Shown piece after piece: positions 1,419 through 10,347 of a DNA stretch of 10,693 bases (positions are counted from its first letter, which is position 1; every line of letters starts with the position of its first letter). The notes below the pieces were generated by a model. That model ran no database searches, was not told the DNA's origin, and saw only the letters and a program-made list of their open reading frames with translations. Source of the DNA: a virus (lineage: Duplodnaviria; Heunggongvirae; Uroviricota; Caudoviricetes); the IMG/VR virus record IMGVR_UViG_2585427787_000010; one strand, 5' to 3'. Position numbers and translations under genes: made by a program.

Positions 1419-3890
1419 TTAAAAATCAGCCTGATTCGGAATCAGTTTTTGCCAGATAGCTGAAACGTATTTTGCCTGGTAACGGGCGTCATCAAGTGCA
1501 TTATGGCGCTCACCTTCGAATGGAATAGCCGTTCTGGCATCGAAGTCTATGGCTTTCCCCAGCTCAACGATTGTGCGTACATCGCGATCGTTGTAGTAAC
1601 GCCACGGGCAGGGGATCCCCTGCCGTTCGTATGAACGGCGCAAAATCGTGTTGTCGAAGTTGGCTCCATTTCCCCAGACCTGAACAAAAAATTCACCGGA
1701 GTTTTCGTCGATAAATTCCCGCAATTGTAACAGTGCATCATCTAACGGGATTTCATCGGTCATAATGGCAGATTGCGCTTCGCGTGATTGCTTAAGCCAC
1801 CATTTAATGGTGTCCCGATCAATGACTCCGCCAGCAGTTTCCAGATCGATAGTCTTACTAAATTCCGGTCCCATATCTCCGGTTTGCGGATCGAAAAATA
1901 TTGCACCTATTGAGATAATCGGGGCATCAGGATTTTTTCCCATGGTTTCAAGGTCGATCATTAGATGGTCACACGTCCTACTGGCGGATGTGATTTCGTG
2001 ATGACCGTTCACCTTAATTGAGTGATCTGCCGTCTCGCCAGTTTCATTATCGCTATTGTGATGCTGATTGCCGCCAGTGTTCTTCTTGTTTGGATGTTCA
2101 GCGCCTTCCATTTCCTCCGGATCATCTTCCTGAACTTCAACCTGATACTCTTCATCGAATGTTTCCTGGTATGTTGCGTCGCCCATCACCGCGCCACAAT
2201 CAGGGCAGTTGCCGCCGCCGGTCTGACCGCAGGCGGTGCAGATCTTTTCCGGTTCCTGTTGCACTACTGGTTCAGGTTGTTTCGTTTCTGGCTCGTTTTG
2301 TTGCGTATTTGGGCTGTTTTGTTCCGCTTTCTGGTCGTTCTGTTCCGATTCTTGCTGGTTCTGGTTTACAGAATCGCGGGTTTCAATCCCCTTTACCCAT
2401 TTCGGATCATTCGGGTCGCTAATCCCTGCAACAAATTCTCCGCGAGAGGCAGCAAGCAACTTATCGGCGTCAGGCTGGCTGATATTGGCTGCCTGCATAA
2501 TTTTGTTTACTTCGTCAGCGGTAACTTTTACCGGCTCTGGTTGTGCGGTCGTGTCAGATGCACCAGTATTTTGTTGTGAACCTGAGTACGTGCCGTTTTT
2601 ACGTGCGAAGTATTCCTCTTTTGTGATTTCCGTAGCTCCCAAGGCTAGTGCTTTTTCCAGACCAGAAAGTTTGTTTGCGCGACCGTATTTTTCGCCATCC
2701 TTGTCGGTGAAGAGGAAGTAGAACGGCCCTTCACGCTCTACAGATGGTTCGACTTCCACTTTGCATTCGGTTTTTTCGTTGTCCGGAATTGCCGTTTCCA
2801 CTGCATCAGTTTCTGGTACTGGCGACGAGAGAGTATCAGTTGCGCTCTGATTTGTTCCTTCATCTTCAAACACGCCCTTTGTAGTCAGGTATTCAGTAAT
2901 GTATTTGTTCAGTGCCACAGGGTCTTTGTGAATGTCGATCGGACGTTCACGGACAAGGCCAAAAATAGTCTGGCGGTCGTAGCGAAGGGCATCAGGCTGT
3001 TTGCGCATTGATGCCGAGATACGCTTCCAGTCTTCGCGGTCGTTGTCGATAACTTCATTTTTTGCCCAGCGATGAATGCTGCCGTCAATGTTTCCGGCAT
3101 CCACATCACCAGGCCAGAGAGCGTAGGCCAGTTCGTCATCCAGTGTTTTCCATGTCTGCTTGTATTCGCGATGAGTGGCAGCAATGACCGGGCTGATTTT
3201 TCCTGTTGAACTTTCAGTGTTCTGTTGATTGGCTCTGGCGCGGGCGAGATCAACAACAGACGTGTATTTTCCGGTTCCCTTGCGTTCACCTTCGCGACGT
3301 TTTTTCCAGATGCGCATCTCTGCCTGAATTTCGGGCCATTTAGCTCCAGGCTTACATTTATGCTTAACCCACCCGATGGCATGCAACTTAAGTTCCGGAT
3401 ACATGGCGTTAACTTCTGGCATTTTCATCAACGCTTCAACGATATATCCGTCGAATGTTGCCATGTCTTCCTGCAACAGTTCCTGTGCACTAATCACCAT
3501 ATCAACGGTGATGTTTTCACATGTGTCGAACTTAACCATGACAGCGTTCTGTACTTCAGGGGCCAGCTTGTCAAAAGTGACGTTCATCGGATTTGATTCA
3601 GTCTCAACCGGGACAAAGGAAGCTGACTCCTCATCCCAGCGGTTTTCCCGCATATATTCAGCATCCCAGGAATCGAGGGCAGGGCGGGGTATACCGGGTT
3701 TATCCTCGCAGACAAGAAATTTATAAGCGCAGTCCTGAGCAGCCGGATATTGCTCCAGGAATTGCCAGGTAAATTTGGCACGGGCGCGGCGTTCGTCACC
3801 GGCTTCAATGGCAGTGGCTACAGCAACTGCACCTTCTTCCTTTATTGCCTGTTCGTCCGGAATGGCGGCGCAAATAAAGACTTTACTCAT
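1419..3890 (-). CDS. Large prophage exonuclease (823 aa): RecE (exonuclease VIII)-like N-terminal/central region, Q/E/P-rich linker with a Cys4 cluster, and C-terminal DnaQ-like DEDDh 3'-5' exonuclease domain
   Basis: Long uninterrupted ORF with ATG at 3890. C-terminal ~190 aa carry DEDDh motifs: Exo I MIDLETMG, Exo II GNGANFDNTIL, Exo III HNALDDARYQAKY. Central CTACGQTGGGNCPDCG has CxxC...CxxC spacing. Position beside xis/int matches a lambdoid recombination module. The RecE-like assignment of the N-terminal part is from memory and tentative. Confidence 0.8.
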   Translation of the reverse strand: MSKVFICAAIPDEQAIKEEGAVAVATAIEAGDERRARAKFTWQFLEQYPAAQDCAYKFLVCEDKPGIPRPALDSWDAEYMRENRWDEESASFVPVETESNPMNVTFDKLAPEVQNAVMVKFDTCENITVDMVISAQELLQEDMATFDGYIVEALMKMPEVNAMYPELKLHAIGWVKHKCKPGAKWPEIQAEMRIWKKRREGERKGTGKYTSVVDLARARANQQNTESSTGKISPVIAATHREYKQTWKTLDDELAYALWPGDVDAGNIDGSIHRWAKNEVIDNDREDWKRISASMRKQPDALRYDRQTIFGLVRERPIDIHKDPVALNKYITEYLTTKGVFEDEGTNQSATDTLSSPVPETDAVETAIPDNEKTECKVEVEPSVEREGPFYFLFTDKDGEKYGRANKLSGLEKALALGATEITKEEYFARKNGTYSGSQQNTGASDTTAQPEPVKVTADEVNKIMQAANISQPDADKLLAASRGEFVAGISDPNDPKWVKGIETRDSVNQNQQESEQNDQKAEQNSPNTQQNEPETKQPEPVVQQEPEKICTACGQTGGGNCPDCGAVMGDATYQETFDEEYQVEVQEDDPEEMEGAEHPNKKNTGGNQHHNSDNETGETADHSIKVNGHHEITSASRTCDHLMIDLETMGKNPDAPIISIGAIFFDPQTGDMGPEFSKTIDLETAGGVIDRDTIKWWLKQSREAQSAIMTDEIPLDDALLQLREFIDENSGEFFVQVWGNGANFDNTILRRSYERQGIPCPWRYYNDRDVRTIVELGKAIDFDARTAIPFEGERHNALDDARYQAKYVSAIWQKLIPNQADF

Positions 3891-4409: not shown

Positions 4410-4467
4410 AAAAAGGGCGGCAGACCAGTCACGGAGTAAAACTGATACCGCCAAACGTCACCAGAAA
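4410..4467 (-). ncRNA. dicF: DicF-like small regulatory RNA (prophage sRNA that targets ftsZ mRNA in E. coli)
   Basis: Minus-strand sequence UUUUCUGGUGACGUUUGGCGGUAUCAGUUUUACUCCGUGACUGGUCUGCCGCCCUUUUU matches E. coli DicF as I recall it, with about one difference. It ends in a GC-rich hairpin (GGCGG...CCGCC) followed by U5, an intrinsic terminator. It sits in an ORF-free region of the leftward operon. Confidence 0.75.
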
Positions 4468-5891: not shown

Positions 5892-6311
5892 CTATGATGC
5901 GTTTTGTGCTTTCTTTTTACGGATTTCTTCGTAGATCATATTGTAATACTGTTTTTTCTCTTCAAGAGTTTTTAATAATTTATCCGCTTCACTTTCTGGC
6001 AGTTCGTCTAAGAGATCTAAAAAAATACGTTGTCGTGGCGTTAGAACCCTTGTTTCATAACTGGAGGCTGTGTTCGTTGATGATGAAACGATACCATCCA
6101 TCCATCCCCGGGGTAACCCAAAGGACTCTTCGATAATCTCCACCATATCATCAGCGATCCGTTTTTTTCCCTTTTTCCCCTCTGGGTACAACATTCTTGA
6201 TACATAAGAAGGCTCGCGCCCGATCTTTCTGGCCACGTTAACCGCTTTACCATCGCATTTCTCATCACGAATTTTGATGAGTTGCTGTCGTCTAAATTCA
6301 TATTTGTCCAT
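5892..6311 (-). CDS. Prophage immunity repressor, DicA/RacR-like HTH protein (139 aa), without a peptidase S24 domain
   Basis: HTH-like segment NVARKIGREPSYVSRML; C-terminal LTPRQRIFLDLLDELPESEADKLLKTL resembles the DicA C-terminus (..LELLELFNALPESEQD..) as recalled; divergent from a Cro-like gene. No Ala-Gly / Ser...Lys LexA-type cleavage motifs are apparent. Confidence 0.8.
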   Translation of the reverse strand: MDKYEFRRQQLIKIRDEKCDGKAVNVARKIGREPSYVSRMLYPEGKKGKKRIADDMVEIIEESFGLPRGWMDGIVSSSTNTASSYETRVLTPRQRIFLDLLDELPESEADKLLKTLEEKKQYYNMIYEEIRKKKAQNAS

Positions 6312-6411: not shown

Positions 6412-6693
6412 ATGGAAGAATTAAGAATATTTCTCAATTCTCTTTCGTCAGATGAACAGCGTATGTTTGCATGCGAGTGTGGTACCAGCATCGGTTATCT
6501 AAGAAAGGCATTGAGTAAAGGTCAAGTGTTAGGGGCATCGTTATGTGTCCTTATTGAGCGAGCCAGTAATGGTGAAGTTACACGTCAGCAACTAAGGCCT
6601 TTTGATTGGATGAATATTTGGCCCGAGCTGGAAGATACCAAAACGTTAACACAACCACTTTCTAGGAGCTTGATTCATGAAAATCAAGCATGA
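6412..6693 (+). CDS. Cro-like HTH regulator of the DicC/YdaS family (93 aa)
   Basis: Divergent from the repressor; motif ...ASLCVLIERASNGEVTRQQLRPFDW parallels YdaS ..ERCPAIERATRGEVLCEELRPD.. as recalled; good SD. Confidence 0.75.
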   Translation: MEELRIFLNSLSSDEQRMFACECGTSIGYLRKALSKGQVLGASLCVLIERASNGEVTRQQLRPFDWMNIWPELEDTKTLTQPLSRSLIHENQA

Positions 6694-7102
6694 ACACATC
6701 CGCATGGCGATGAATGTCTGGGCGCATCCGGACGGCGAAAAAGTGCCGGCTGCGAAAATTACCAAAGCGTATTTCGAGCTGGGAATGACGTTCCCGGAAC
6801 TGTATGACGACAGCCATCCGGAAGCCCTGGCTCGCAATACTCAGAAAATTTTCCGCTGGGTGGAGAAAGACACCCCTGATGCGGTTAAAAAAATTCAGGC
6901 GTTGTTACCAGCTATCGAAAAAGCAATGCCACCTCTGCTGGTGGCCCGAATGCGCAGTCATAGCTCAGCCTATTTTCGGGAACTAGTGGAGACGCGGGAA
7001 CGACTGGTGAGAGACGCTGATGATTTTGTCGCAGTGGCGATCGCTGGTTTCAACCAGATGAATCGTGGTGGCCCTGCAGGAAATATTGTGGCTGTGCATT
7101 GA
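6677..7102 (+). CDS. YdaT-like protein (141 aa), CII-analog regulator historically annotated as a toxin
   Basis: Begins MKIKHEHI... and ends ...VAVH, with a size typical of Rac YdaT; overlaps the upstream YdaS-like gene by 17 nt, indicating coupling. Confidence 0.7.
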   Translation: MKIKHEHIRMAMNVWAHPDGEKVPAAKITKAYFELGMTFPELYDDSHPEALARNTQKIFRWVEKDTPDAVKKIQALLPAIEKAMPPLLVARMRSHSSAYFRELVETRERLVRDADDFVAVAIAGFNQMNRGGPAGNIVAVH

Positions 7103-7173
7103 CTCGCAATATTCATACCGGATCACTTCCGGCAATTTGTGAGTAAAAAGATTCGGTATCAAAAGAGGTGAGT

Positions 7174-8244
7174 ATGGCTAACGCCTGGCTCAGATTATGG
7201 CATGACATGCCAAATGACCCTAAGTGGCGAACAATTGCCAGGGTGTCAGGGCAGCCAATTGCAACAGTGATGGCAGTGTATATCCACCTCCTGGTGAGCG
7301 CGTCACGAAATGTCACGCGAGGTCACATTGATGTCACGACAGAAGATTTGGCAAGTGCGCTCGACGTGACAGAAGAGGTAATTGATTCAATTTTGCAGAC
7401 GATGCAGGGGCGGGTACTTGATGGTGATTTAATCACTGGATGGGAAAAACGCCAGGTGCTTAAAGAGGACAACGGCAATATTTCGCAAACCGCAAAATCT
7501 CCTGCAGAGCGCAAGAGGGCGCAGCGAGAGAGGGAAAGAAAGCGGGAACAAAATGGCGATTGTCACGGCGCGTCACGAAATGTCACGCACATGTCACGAC
7601 GAGTCACGACAGATAAAGATACAGATAAAGATACAGATCAAGAAGATCAAAACACTATGGTCCATGGCGTAAAAAACGCCACGAACCAGGCAGGGGATGT
7701 TCAGACCGTCAATCCTGGTCAGCCAGCAGGCACGACACCGGAAGCCGATTCAGCGTATGCGCTGAAAGCCGATTCGGGCGCTGTGCAGCAGGTGATGACC
7801 GCAAGGCCGGAGCAATCACACCAACTGCAGCAGCCTGAAGCCGATTCCGCCATTCAGCGGGAAGCCGATCGGGTAGTCCCGGAAAACACCGGGCAGCCTG
7901 TGAGACGAGTGGATTATCCGGATGTGTTCGAACAGGTCTGGCGGGAATACCCGTTGCGTGCTGGGGCAAACCCGAAGAAATCCGCTTTCAGTGCCTGGAA
8001 GGCCAGATTACGCGAGGGGGTGTCACCAGAGGCCATGCTGGATGGCGTGAGGCGTTACGCAAGATACCTTGCGGCTACCGGGAAAACGGGAACGGAATTT
8101 GTTCAGCGAGCGACGACGTTTTTTGGACCGGACCGGAATTTTGAAAACCCCTGGCTGCTCCCGGTAAGCGGCACGAACAACCAGCGTTGTGTGAATCATA
8201 TTTCTGAACCGGATACCGAAATTCCACCGGGCTTCAGGGGGTAA
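7174..8244 (+). CDS. Replication initiator / replisome organiser (lambda O-like role; YdaU/DUF1376-like), about 356 aa from ATG 7174
   Basis: SD AGAGG 5 nt before the ATG at 7174 (the ORF track starts at a GTG at 7168). N-terminus ANAWLRLWHDMPNDPKWRTIA is typical of phage replication organisers. The gene contains two clusters of GTCACG iterons plus an AT-rich repeat, as lambda ori sits inside O. It follows the immunity region. Confidence 0.75.
   Translation: MANAWLRLWHDMPNDPKWRTIARVSGQPIATVMAVYIHLLVSASRNVTRGHIDVTTEDLASALDVTEEVIDSILQTMQGRVLDGDLITGWEKRQVLKEDNGNISQTAKSPAERKRAQRERERKREQNGDCHGASRNVTHMSRRVTTDKDTDKDTDQEDQNTMVHGVKNATNQAGDVQTVNPGQPAGTTPEADSAYALKADSGAVQQVMTARPEQSHQLQQPEADSAIQREADRVVPENTGQPVRRVDYPDVFEQVWREYPLRAGANPKKSAFSAWKARLREGVSPEAMLDGVRRYARYLAATGKTGTEFVQRATTFFGPDRNFENPWLLPVSGTNNQRCVNHISEPDTEIPPGFRG
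7298..7342. repeat. Iteron cluster 1: four GTCAC(G/A) repeats at about 10-11 bp spacing, inside the replication gene
   Basis: GTCACG at 7302, 7312 and 7333, with a GTCACA variant at 7322; the first 21 bp (gcgcgtcacgaaatgtcacgc) are identical to the start of cluster 2. Confidence 0.7.
7561..7650. repeat. Iteron cluster 2 (five GTCACG repeats) followed by an AT-rich tandem repeat (gataaagataca x2); candidate origin of replication
   Basis: GTCACG at 7562, 7572, 7582, 7593 and 7604, spaced about one helical turn apart; immediately followed by agataaagatacagataaagatacagatcaagaagatcaa (7611-7650). Confidence 0.7.
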
Positions 8245-8284
8245 GTGTTGATTTCTGGTCATGAGGTAATTTTCAGGAGGACTT

Positions 8285-8707
8285 GTGGCAAAAGTTTTTA
8301 CACAAGAAGAGCGGGAAAAAATTAAAGGGCAGGTTGTTGAACTCGTACGCCAGAGTGGGCGCGAGACGTTACGACAACTGGAAACTAAAACTGGGGCAAC
8401 AAGATATCTGATGAGCGTTCTGGCCAGAGAGCTGGTTGCCAGTGGCGATGTATACAACTCTGGTTACGGGTTATTCCCGTCTGAACAGGCGCGTAAGGAC
8501 TGGCAAAATGCCCGTAAAAAGCTCTCAAGGGCAAAGCTGAAGAAACCATCTGCGGTTGATCCGGACCTTATCTGGTCATTACCTGACGGAGAAATACGTC
8601 GCTACGACAGGCGTCAGAACATAATCTGTCGCGAGTGCCGGAAGAGTGAGGTTATGCAGCGAGTGCTGGCGTTTTATCAGGGTAATTTTCAGGAGGTGAT
8701 GGCGTGA
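8285..8707 (+). CDS. Ren-like protein (140 aa); lambda Ren family, tentative
   Basis: GTG start 4-5 nt after AGGAGG; C-terminal RECRKSEVMQRVLAFYQG resembles lambda Ren ..KECRQSAAMKRVLAVYG.. as recalled; HTH-like N-terminal segment; sits after the replication gene where lambda has ren. Confidence 0.5.
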   Translation: MAKVFTQEEREKIKGQVVELVRQSGRETLRQLETKTGATRYLMSVLARELVASGDVYNSGYGLFPSEQARKDWQNARKKLSRAKLKKPSAVDPDLIWSLPDGEIRRYDRRQNIICRECRKSEVMQRVLAFYQGNFQEVMA

Positions 8708-9000
8708 GAGTGAGAGTCTATATCGCCGGTCCAATGACCGGGTATAAAAATTTCAACCGTGAGGCGTTTCACAATGCGGAAGAGGAACTGAAACGGGAAG
8801 GGCATACCGTTTTAAATCCGGCTGTGCTTCCGGATGGGCTGACACAGCCGCACTACATGGATATTTGCATGGCAATGATTCGTTGTGTGGATGCGATTTA
8901 CATGCTGAAAGGCTGGCAGCGGTCAGCAGGTGCTAAGGCAGAACTGGCGCTGGCGGAGAAACTGGGGCATGCAGTTATTTTCCAGGAGGAGGTACAGTGA
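8704..9000 (+). CDS. DUF4406-like protein, nucleoside 2-deoxyribosyltransferase-like fold (98 aa)
   Basis: N-terminal VYIAGPMTG motif and ...VLNPA...DAIYMLKGWQRSAGAKAELALAEKLG pattern are typical of the DUF4406 / deoxyribosyltransferase-like family. GTG start overlaps the upstream stop (GTGA), indicating translational coupling. Confidence 0.7.
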   Translation: MRVRVYIAGPMTGYKNFNREAFHNAEEELKREGHTVLNPAVLPDGLTQPHYMDICMAMIRCVDAIYMLKGWQRSAGAKAELALAEKLGHAVIFQEEVQ

Positions 9001-9323
9001 ATATCGACGCAACAATGACGATTGGTACGGCCCTCAATACGGGGCTGGCGCTTCTTGGTTGGTGCTACATCATGTTCTGCTCATGGCGGTGGCTGTCACT
9101 GATGTTACTGAAAGAATGGAATAAACGCTGTAAACAGACGCAGCGGCAGAAGGCAATGAATGCGTTTTTTGAGACCTTCGATATTGACAGTATAGAACCA
9201 GGAGAGCCAGCTCGCGTGATTAGCAGAGGTGACGTTGTAATTCTTGTATACCGGAGTGAAGAGAAAGCAGTAACCGGCTCATTTAAACCGTCTGGTCTGT
9301 TTCCTCCGGCTCTACAAAAATAA
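8997..9323 (+). CDS. Small membrane protein (108 aa) with one N-terminal transmembrane helix
   Basis: GTG start overlapping the upstream stop, after GGAGGAGG; hydrophobic stretch IGTALNTGLALLGWCYIMFCSW; a hairpin (tgtccat-N8-atggaca) lies just after the stop. Confidence 0.55.
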   Translation: MNIDATMTIGTALNTGLALLGWCYIMFCSWRWLSLMLLKEWNKRCKQTQRQKAMNAFFETFDIDSIEPGEPARVISRGDVVILVYRSEEKAVTGSFKPSGLFPPALQK

Positions 9324-10000
9324 TGTCCATCATTTTTAATGGACACTATCGTATGAAACACCGGACCTGGATCACTGAAGCTTTACGTCTTCACTTTGAA
9401 GAACATTTACCCCGGGTTGTGGCCGGGCGTCGCCTGGGTGTACCAAAATCAACAGTTTGTAGTATGTTCGTGCGCTTTCGGAGAGCTGGCCTTTCGTGGC
9501 CTTTGCCCGCAGGCATGTCGGAGCAGGAACTTGATGCCTGCCTTTACGGACAATTTTCCACGGTACCAGTCGTACGTCCTGAAAGCACCGTTATATCCGA
9601 AGCCCCCGTGGTAAAAAAACGTCCCCGGCGGCCCAACTTCCCTTATGAGTTTAAAATCGCCTTAGTGGAGCAGTCACTGCAGCCCGGAGCCTGTGTGGCG
9701 CAGATCGCCCGGGAAAACGGAATCAACGATAACCTGCTCTTCAACTGGCGCCATCAATACCGGAAAGGTGGCCTGCTGCCTTCCGGAAAAAATATGCCGG
9801 CACTGCTTCCCGTGACGTTAACGCCGGAGCCGGATAATAAAATCCCGGCCCCCGCACAGGAACCAGAGCAGATAAATACACCGTCCGACAGTCTGTGTTG
9901 TGAGCTGGTTCTGCCGGCCGGAACTCTCAGGCTTAAAGGTAAACTGACGCCGGCGTTATTACAGACACTTATCCGCGAAATAAAAGGGAGCAGCCACTGA
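9323..10000 (+). CDS. tnpA: IS66-family TnpA (orf1)-like protein; true start uncertain (the N-terminal ~90 codons may belong to a different, disrupted gene or be an extension)
   Basis: C-terminal two-thirds (..KKRPRRPNFPYEFKIALVEQSLQPGACVAQIARENGINDNLLFNWRHQYRKG..) has the HTH-transposase pattern typical of IS66 orf1. The N-terminal part (RLHF...GLSWPLP...) looks like a separate IS21-IstA-like HTH. A possible GTG start at 9608 has no clear SD. Confidence 0.6.
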   Translation: MSIIFNGHYRMKHRTWITEALRLHFEEHLPRVVAGRRLGVPKSTVCSMFVRFRRAGLSWPLPAGMSEQELDACLYGQFSTVPVVRPESTVISEAPVVKKRPRRPNFPYEFKIALVEQSLQPGACVAQIARENGINDNLLFNWRHQYRKGGLLPSGKNMPALLPVTLTPEPDNKIPAPAQEPEQINTPSDSLCCELVLPAGTLRLKGKLTPALLQTLIREIKGSSH

Positions 10001-10347
10001 TGATATCTCTCCCTGCAGGTTCGCGTATCTGGCTGGTTGCAGGTATCACCGATATGCGAAATGGCTTTAACGGCCTGGCATCAAAAGTTCAGAACGTCCT
10101 GAAGGATGACCCGTTCTCCGGACACCTGTTCATCTTCCGCGGACGCCGGGGTGACCAGATAAAAGTGTTGTGGGCTGACAGTGACGGACTGTGCCTCTTC
10201 ACCAAACGCCTGGAGCGGGGCCGCTTCGTCTGGCCAGCCACCCGTGACGGCAAGGTGCACCTTACTCCGGCTCAGTTATCCATGCTTCTTGAAGGTATCA
10301 ACTGGAAGCACCCGAAACGAACGGAACGCGCTGGAATCCGCATATAA
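10000..10347 (+). CDS. tnpB: IS66-family accessory protein TnpB (orf2), 115 aa
   Basis: MISLPAGSRIWLVAGITDMRNGFNGLA...HLFIFRGRRGDQIKVLWADSDGLCLFTKRLE is characteristic of IS66 Orf2; its start overlaps the TnpA stop (TGATG). Confidence 0.9.
   Translation: MISLPAGSRIWLVAGITDMRNGFNGLASKVQNVLKDDPFSGHLFIFRGRRGDQIKVLWADSDGLCLFTKRLERGRFVWPATRDGKVHLTPAQLSMLLEGINWKHPKRTERAGIRI

Follow-up and report, generated by a model that had tools for sequence, protein, structure and literature searches.

A replication gene that contains clusters of short repeats raises the question of whether it also contains the site at which replication starts. In the 10,693-nucleotide stretch of viral DNA analyzed here (the window), a sequence-only reading had pointed to two groups of GTCAC(G/A) repeats and an AT-rich tandem repeat inside the gene at 7174-8244, and had proposed that they form a prophage origin mirroring that of phage lambda. 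We examined this proposal by sequence comparison and structure modeling.

The initiator gene and its repeats

Over its entire length, the open reading frame matches phrog_3729, 'replication initiation protein' (E = 7e-257), and near-identical genes of E. coli carry the RefSeq/PGAP name 'phage replisome organizer'. Because the homologues begin with MAN..., the ATG at 7174 was taken as the start codon. The gene order is lambda-like, with a repressor gene, a cro-like gene, and a cII-like gene followed by the rep gene (Table 1). The rep region (7100-8300) is 97-99% identical to those of phages Tritos and Evi and several vB_Eco isolates (99.2% for Tritos), and the host element is a Qin/Tritos-like lambdoid prophage of E. 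coli, which also carries DicF. The 5' half of the gene, including both arrays, was found in 2078 of 5426 complete E. coli genomes. The complete Tritos genome lacks a loader/helicase gene, and the window likewise has no replication gene after rep.

Table 1. Coordinates of the initiator gene, its neighbors, and the repeat elements within it (positions in the window)
Feature	Position	Strand	Remarks
Repressor gene	5892-6311	-	
cro-like gene	6412-6693		
cII/YdaT-like gene	6677-7102		
Replication initiator gene	7174-8244	+	356 aa; phrog_3729; PGAP name; AF2 models
Iteron cluster 1 (array 1)	7302-7338	+	four direct GTCAC(G/A) copies, starting at 7302, 7312, 7322, and 7333
Fifth site of cluster 1, inverted	7365-7370	-	about three turns of the helix (33 bp) from the fourth copy; codons 65-66
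Iteron cluster 2 (array 2)	7562-7608	+	five direct GTCACG copies, starting at 7562, 7572, 7582, 7593, and 7603
21-nt unit, copy one	7298-7318	+	identical to 7568-7588
21-nt unit, copy two	7568-7588	+	identical to 7298-7318
A-rich, purine-rich tract (candidate DNA unwinding element)	7609-7652	+	(ACAGATAAAGAT)x2.9, then CAAGAAGATCAAAAC; GATC at 7636 and 7645
Imperfect inverted repeat	7658-7688	.	core TGGCGT-aaaaa-ACGCCA, 13 pairs when G-T is counted; shortly after the A tract
DUF977 gene	8285-8707		next gene after rep

The earlier count of nine GTCAC(G/A) repeats in clusters of four and five holds for the direct copies, but a tenth copy, inverted and belonging to array 1, had been overlooked. 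The spacing of about one helical turn was borne out by measurement, with intervals of 10/10/11 bp in array 1 and 10/10/11/10 bp in array 2. The 21-nt unit GCGCGTCACGAAATGTCACGC shared by the two arrays, which lie about 260 bp apart within the single gene, comprises two iterons and a spacer and corresponds to 7 codons, or about two helical turns. While its two copies are exactly identical, they had been described as the common start of the clusters; the identity in fact begins at the second, not the first, iteron of array 2 because a further copy precedes it at 7562. The clustering is not random. Ten of the 16 GTCACR matches of the window are packed into 307 bp, and 1000 dinucleotide-preserving shuffles of the whole window gave at most five matches in any 310 bp (10 observed) and at most three in any 60 bp (five observed). 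In the complete 46-kb Tritos genome, only the two rep-gene arrays have three or more sites per 60 bp. No DnaA box was found near the repeats. The sequence TATCCAC at 7281-7287, just upstream of array 1, was rejected as a candidate element, its synonymous sites (codons 36-38) not being conserved. An Rfam scan of the window returned DicF only, located elsewhere than the repeats.

An AT-rich tandem repeat in two copies had been reported after the second cluster. The repeat is present, but it comprises 2.9 copies of ACAGATAAAGAT (7609-7643), and 'A-rich and purine-rich' describes it better than 'AT-rich'; the tract as a whole is 70% A+T and 72% purine on the + strand. No 40-mer of the gene is less stable than the one from 7613, which ranks fourth in instability among non-overlapping 40-mers of the 10.7-kb window; the three that are less stable lie in the G+C-poor early region at 5.0-6.0 kb. 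A DnaA-trio-like reading of the GATAAA repeats was set aside as a poor match to the motif. The inverted repeat that follows the tract might conceivably be a third origin element.

Conservation of the sites in related genes

About 800 relatives of the N-terminal 160 residues were present in the protein collection, and DNA was compared among phage homologues and 52 loci, one genome per species. A scan of viral contigs with the N-terminal peptide had returned 80 loci that were all 100% identical over the query and offered no diversity, and it was replaced by an alignment-based scan of genome contigs. The earlier reading had called for a comparison of iterons across homologous prophages. The GTCAC layout proved to be common to 21 species of gamma- and beta-proteobacteria, a set that includes Shigella, E. 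albertii, Serratia, Rahnella, Scandinavium, Superficieibacter, Pseudomonas, Entomomonas, Gilvimarinus, Stenotrophomonas, Bordetella, Acidovorax, Aquitalea, Chromobacterium, Aeromonas phage pAEv1818, and Pseudomonas phage phi1. Copies are kept at nt 129, 139, 149, and 160 of the gene, with the inverted copy at 193 in most genes and the second array at about 380-430. The conserved core, taken over 182 sites, is GTCACG, an asymmetric 6-bp word with variable flanks, and the intervals are 10 bp (91 cases) or 11 bp (28 cases). Absence of the repeats from otherwise homologous functional genes, which would have spoken against the proposal, was not what we observed, since the viable phages Tritos, Evi, pAEv1818, and phi1 all keep them.

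To score conservation at the DNA level, we used the frequency with which sequences sharing an amino acid also share its codon, over codons 5-120 of 20 GTCAC-type genes; the compared sequences are related, so that counts are not independent events, and codons outside the iterons, taken from these same genes, provide the internal control. Synonymous codon identity was 0.95 for the nine codons with their third base in a core and 0.42 for the 87 codons elsewhere (Mann-Whitney p = 6e-7). Val47 was encoded by GTC, Thr48 by ACG, and Gly50 by GGT in all 20 genes, and Val65 at the inverted site by GTG in each of the 16 genes that have Val there, while the codons of Val32 were spread over GTT (7), GTC (6), GTG (5), and GTA (2). 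These comparisons indicate that the repeats are under selection at the DNA level.

The arrays also shape the protein. ASRNVT occurs at residues 43-48 and again at 133-138, and an acidic DKDTDKDTDQEDQ stretch is present in the translation, as had been read earlier, but array 1 lies within the coding sequence of the folded N-terminal domain in the AF2 model, and not between two domains as then supposed. The repeated peptide and the low complexity of the linker would suit an explanation in which a peptide (ASRNVT, DKDT) was selected, or the linker slipped neutrally, with the DNA having no function of its own. We find this scarcely credible. The period of 10-11 bp is not a multiple of 3, so that copies fall in different frames and are read as S-R, V-T, or C/G-H; ASRNVTRGH in the domain and CH..SRNVT in the linker arise because one DNA word is read in several frames, and the repeated peptide is best regarded as a by-product of the DNA repeat because sites at 10-bp spacing fall in three frames. 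Moreover, the synonymous sites of the cores are nearly frozen, Arg45 is replaced with Gln in some genes with the GTCAC core kept, and the positions of the copies are stable across genera. The A tract argues in the same direction. Array 2 runs directly into C(A)GATAAAGATAAAGA, CAGATACAGATA, or CAGAGAAGAGAAG in every repeat type, and the translation of the tract is TDKDKD in some genes and QIREEEI(REE) in others; because it is read in different frames among genes, the A tract, too, is conserved as DNA. Taken from the sequence comparison, a protein-level or neutral source of the repeats is contradicted.

The low stability of the tract is also kept among relatives. In 33 of 39 loci it holds the least stable 40-mer of the first 850 nt of the gene, and in 20 of the 39 it holds that of the whole 4-5 kb locus, with a mean z of 3.4, a mean A+T content of 68%, and a mean purine content of 75% across the 39 loci.

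The gene is a clear natural case of a single piece of DNA that obeys two codes, for a protein and for a predicted binding site. The traces of dual coding are frozen synonymous sites, one word in three frames, growth in steps of 21 bp, and avoidance of the stop frame of GTAACG, the word of one group of homologues described below. Such a growth step is seen in E. albertii and O157 relatives (L086), in which a 21-bp insertion adds two more iterons and 7 aa in the loop.

The N-terminal domain and the repeat types

In the protein, a winged-helix-like N-terminal domain (about aa 1-95) is followed by a basic helix (aa 110-127); beyond this come a linker of low complexity and, at about aa 250-320, a helical C-terminal domain. 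The AF2 model of residues 1-128 (pLDDT 81.5) has helices at 3-14, 16-25, 29-45, 56-63, and 67-77, a beta hairpin at 78-88, a disordered segment at 98-104, and the long basic helix at 110-127. In this model, array 1 (codons 43-55) encodes the end of helix 29-45 and loop 46-55, and the inverted copy encodes the turn joining the next two helices. Array 2 lies in the linker after the basic helix and encodes CH..SRNVT.MSRRVT; together with the A tract it encodes the linker peptide CH..SRNVT..DKDTDKD. The SRNVT-containing peptide is nearly invariant among relatives and the rest of the linker is variable.

With the whole protein, Pfam gave no family at E <= 0.01 and none above its cut-off, and NCBIfam had no family for the N-terminal domain. 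The best Pfam match was Phage_rep_org_N (PF09681), whose score of 16.6 bits (E = 0.008) falls short of the cut-off, 23.3. Its alignment is colinear, placing residues 5-123 on profile positions 1-119 of 121, and just two of 62 relatives matched PF09681 at E <= 0.1. A distant kinship to this family is possible. At a relaxed threshold of E <= 10, weak matches to Phage_rep_org_N and HTH_Crp_2 were all that the N-terminal part gave. A profile search of PDB sequences gave no relative at E <= 10, and Foldseek matched the N-terminal domain weakly (E > 0.1) to generic winged-helix regulators. Rep_3-type (WH1-WH2) initiators of iteron plasmids showed neither a sequence match (Pfam, PDB) nor a fold match. 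The C-terminal part may be a DnaD/DnaB_2-like or DnaT-like recruitment domain; it matched phrog_1701 'DnaD-like helicase loader' (E = 8e-63), frameshifted fragments from the search for its homologues having been dropped before modeling. The final 24 aa resemble the C-terminus of DnaT (E = 0.0015, far below cut-off), and a true DnaT domain (PF17948) is present instead in 18 of the 62 relatives.

The N-terminal domain and both arrays are joined to unrelated C-terminal domains, helical and possibly DnaD-like here and different in others; relatives in O157, Enterobacter, and Klebsiella have a C-terminal DnaT domain. The gene after rep encodes a DnaC-like loader in phage pAEv1818, a primase-helicase in phage phi1, and a DnaB-like helicase in Ralstonia phage Firinga. 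Across these arrangements, the repeats and the N-terminal domain travel as a unit.

Distant homologues (about 35-55% identity) are without GTCAC and carry different 6-mers at the same two places. The GTAACG type was found in four loci (L103, L105, L112, and L121), the CGAACG(C) type in about 15 loci including a metagenomic podovirus (L003), and the GCAACG type in phage Firinga (L004). Both arrays of each genome carry the same word, and all four words end in ACG. Such concerted change of the arrays is expected if one protein reads both.

The putative recognition helix of the N-terminal domain (aa 67-77, EEVIDSILQTM) is acidic, which would be compatible with repeats that bind another protein, such as a host factor or one acting in packaging or partition, and form no origin. 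We regard this as very improbable. Repeat type follows initiator subfamily, and the repeats accompany the N-terminal domain from E. coli to Ralstonia while the neighboring genes differ, a conserved tract of the unwinding type adjoins the sites, and the terminase genes of Tritos are at the far end of the genome from rep. On the AF2 model, candidates for the DNA-reading surface of the initiator itself are the conserved DPKWRTIAR helix, Arg49 in the loop, the wing, and the basic helix.

The loop at aa 43-56 is the part of the N-terminal domain that varies most between repeat types, and the flanking helices are conserved. It is therefore conceivable, albeit doubtful, that the bases of array 1 encode part of their own reader, with this loop as part of the DNA-reading surface. 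If so, a change in a site would alter the reader at the same bases, coupling switches of specificity in origin and initiator, and the loop differences among the GTCACG, GTAACG, CGAACG, and GCAACG subfamilies would be explained. A comparison of L112 (GTAACG) with L093 (GTCACG) as proteins differing in the loop alone was weakened, as the basic helix after residue about 100 differs too.

The proposed origin and known systems

The sites are present, non-random, conserved as DNA, co-varying, and linked to the N-terminal domain, and they lie beside a conserved stability minimum. The two arrays and the A tract very probably constitute a prophage replication origin within the gene of its own initiator, of the kind known from lambda and SPP1. 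The layout, the synonymous conservation, the concerted change, the modularity, and the stability minimum all lend support to the origin proposed by the sequence-only reading. We infer that the initiator is the binder and that looping, melting, helicase recruitment, and origin firing would follow from its binding. The N-terminal DNA-binding part of the 356-aa protein would bind the GTCACG sites, which lie on one face of the DNA because they are spaced one helical turn apart, in two arrays of four direct copies plus one inverted copy and then five direct copies. Proteins on both arrays would probably interact and bend or loop the DNA between them, the resulting strain would melt the adjacent tract at 7609-7652, and the C-terminal, possibly DnaD/DnaT-like part would recruit the host helicase machinery.

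The main alternative is that array 2 and the A tract alone are the origin and array 1, with its inverted site (7302-7370), is a control element, at which the same protein would autoregulate, block its own transcription, or pair origins (handcuffing), in parallel to the incA iterons of plasmid P1 and crr of phage P4. Array 1 is about 270 bp from the stability minimum and has an inverted copy, which array 2 does not. Two iterons beside the AT-rich tract of lambda were reported to be sufficient for unwinding and in vitro replication (PMC7466680). However, nearly all relatives retain both arrays, and the two switch specificity in concert, as would suit a single cooperating unit; Stx phages still require their additional, weakly bound iterons in order to replicate (PMC7466680). 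On balance, we consider a separate control role for array 1 rather unlikely, and return to the reading of both arrays as parts of one origin.

In lambda and Stx phages, ori lies in gene O and consists of iterons and an AT-rich tract, and in Stx phages two additional iterons go with 13 additional aa in the protein (PMC7466680). The putative origin described here is similarly placed in the initiator gene, with repeats followed by an A/T-rich tract and then by the C-terminal coding part. As in Stx phages, the repeats impose amino acids, 21 bp here being equivalent to two iterons and 7 aa, and as in lambda, the rep gene comes after cro- and cII-like genes. Lambda also has a palindrome after its A tract, at the position corresponding to that of the inverted repeat here. 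The iterons of lambda are about 19 bp long with internal dyad symmetry, whereas the present ones have a 6-bp asymmetric core every 10-11 bp, without internal symmetry. Further differences from lambda are the two arrays, one of them within the coding sequence of the folded N-terminal domain, and a DUF977 gene in place of a P-like loader gene next to the initiator gene. The comparison with lambda made earlier can be retained for function and layout, that is, repeats and an A/T-rich tract in an initiator gene, but not for descent, as the initiator has no homology to O (Pfam gave nothing above cut-off).

A second parallel is oriL of phage SPP1, which lies in gene 38 (encoding G38P) and comprises AB boxes and a DUE (PMC5737612, PMC6316719). 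In both cases, direct repeats, which in SPP1 are bound by the organizer, are located in the organizer's own gene beside an AT-rich DUE or candidate DUE and the initiator is without an AAA+ domain (PMC5737612, PMC6316719). The two systems also have in common two separate repeat regions and the name 'phage replisome organizer' (PGAP). In SPP1, however, oriR is about 13 kb off (PMC6316719), compared with the 260 bp between the arrays here. Genes 39 and 40 of SPP1 are an adjacent loader and helicase, whereas the window is without such genes, and the PF09681 match of the present protein is below threshold. In the PF09681 family, the low-complexity region after the domain reflects DNA direct repeats that serve as the origin. 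The window fits this description in that array 2 and the A tract encode its low-complexity linker.

RepA_N plasmids such as pSK41 likewise have the origin inside the rep gene. They and lactococcal phage TP901-1, whose rep has A-rich repeats mid-gene, resemble the present gene in having mid-gene repeats between a DNA-binding N-terminal domain and a C-terminal recruitment domain. The fold resemblance to the N-terminal domain of RepA_N proteins (4pql, 4pta) is weak and at chance level (probability 0.14-0.23). The Rep protein of TP901-1, which consists of HTH_36 and DnaB_2, was rejected as a relative (hhalign probability 1.3%).

The element is thus of an ordinary kind, mechanistically unsurprising and widespread, and it leaves the general view of phage origins unchanged; for its initiator family, we found no published description of such an element. 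In a literature search of incomplete coverage, neither GTCACG iterons nor this origin turned up, and an earlier account is possible. Knowledge of the origin and its specificity types may help in predicting which prophages remain able to replicate and which would compete or prove incompatible, and could be of practical use for origin-specific vectors and for blocking induction. Relatives of the gene are found in prophages of many proteobacteria.

Array growth and reading frame

We examined the repeat arrays of the phage replication initiator (rep) gene across homologous loci, and the arrays appear to grow in units of 21 bp, a length that spans seven codons, holds two repeats and makes about two turns of the helix. 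Growth in such steps fits the 21-nt unit that array 1 and array 2 of the window share, the two copies by which the window's array 2 exceeds that of three-copy relatives (last copy at gene nt 430 vs 409), and a 7-aa insertion (TCHGVSL) in array 1 of E. albertii and O157 relatives, which results in two added copies (gene nt 149-181 of the homologue L086). In the subfamily with the repeat word GTAACG, where a TAA stop would arise from the repeat in one of three frames, we followed the reading frame over gene nt 130-460 of three loci. All seven copies in L112 keep to the two frames that avoid this stop, and their spacing alternates between 10 and 11 bp. L103 and L105 show 21-bp spacing with the gaps filled by inverted copies (CGTTAC).

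Table. Positions of features in and around the rep gene
Feature	Window position	Strand	Remarks
RecE-like exonuclease gene	1419-3890	-	823 aa
DicF antisense sRNA	4415-4466	-	Rfam RF00039, 74 bits
21-nt unit common to both arrays	7298-7318; 7568-7588		
Strongly basic helix AERKRAQRERERKRE	7501-7554		aa 110-127, just before array 2
GATC (Dam) sites	7636-7639; 7645-7648		distal A tract
Inverted repeat	7658-7688		after A tract
Three small genes of no assigned role (DUF977, DUF4406, DUF4752)	8285-9323		after rep gene
Two IS66-family reading frames (HTH_Tnp_1 orf, then TnpB_IS66)	9323-10347		after DUF4752 gene

Basic helix, A tract and inverted repeat

The basic helix of the initiator is a candidate DNA-contacting arm: R113, K114, R118 and R120 are invariant within the GTCACG subfamily, and the other repeat types have a different sequence there (RAKRWRE, RVRRYREKK). 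Where the window has its two Dam sites, in the A-rich tract that directly follows array 2, AAAGATCTAAAAGATAAAAC is found in relatives from enterobacteria and Aeromonas phages. Through these sites methylation or SeqA could possibly act on origin firing. A homologue subgroup with the loop sequence ...SEERG... (L108, L110, L122, L123 and L135) keeps a (GATAAA)n tract, with at least eight copies in L122, and has no obvious repeated 6-mer at the array 1 position.

Beyond the A tract, the hairpin was stronger than at least 90% of control windows in 12 of the 39 loci, and an inverted repeat lies ~30 nt past array 2 in L087, L101 and L093. The loop TCACT(A/T)CGTTC is common to three loci, whose stems are very different and each mutually complementary (CACCTACC/GGTAGGTG, ACCCACC/GGTGGGT, and CCTCCTCT/AGAGGAGG, the last pair spotted by eye); such differing stems around one shared loop look like compensatory change. 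In many relatives, CCCCC-n3-4-GGGGG encodes a conserved 'PPxG' peptide.

Prophage surroundings

Phage Tritos contains the same DicF region, together with dicB and ydfD homologues, and this common region assigns the prophage to the Qin/Tritos group. The DUF977 gene, whose product has the PHROG label 'Ren-like exclusion protein', holds the position that P occupies in lambda, and no helicase or loader gene was found in the complete Tritos genome. The DUF4406 product is nucleoside 2-deoxyribosyltransferase-like. The E. coli genomes that match best do so only as far as 9266, so the prophage appears to be broken by an insertion sequence at the IS66-family reading frames. Separately, the RecE-like exonuclease gene includes a 21-bp tandem repeat of four copies (73% matches) at 2277-2360.
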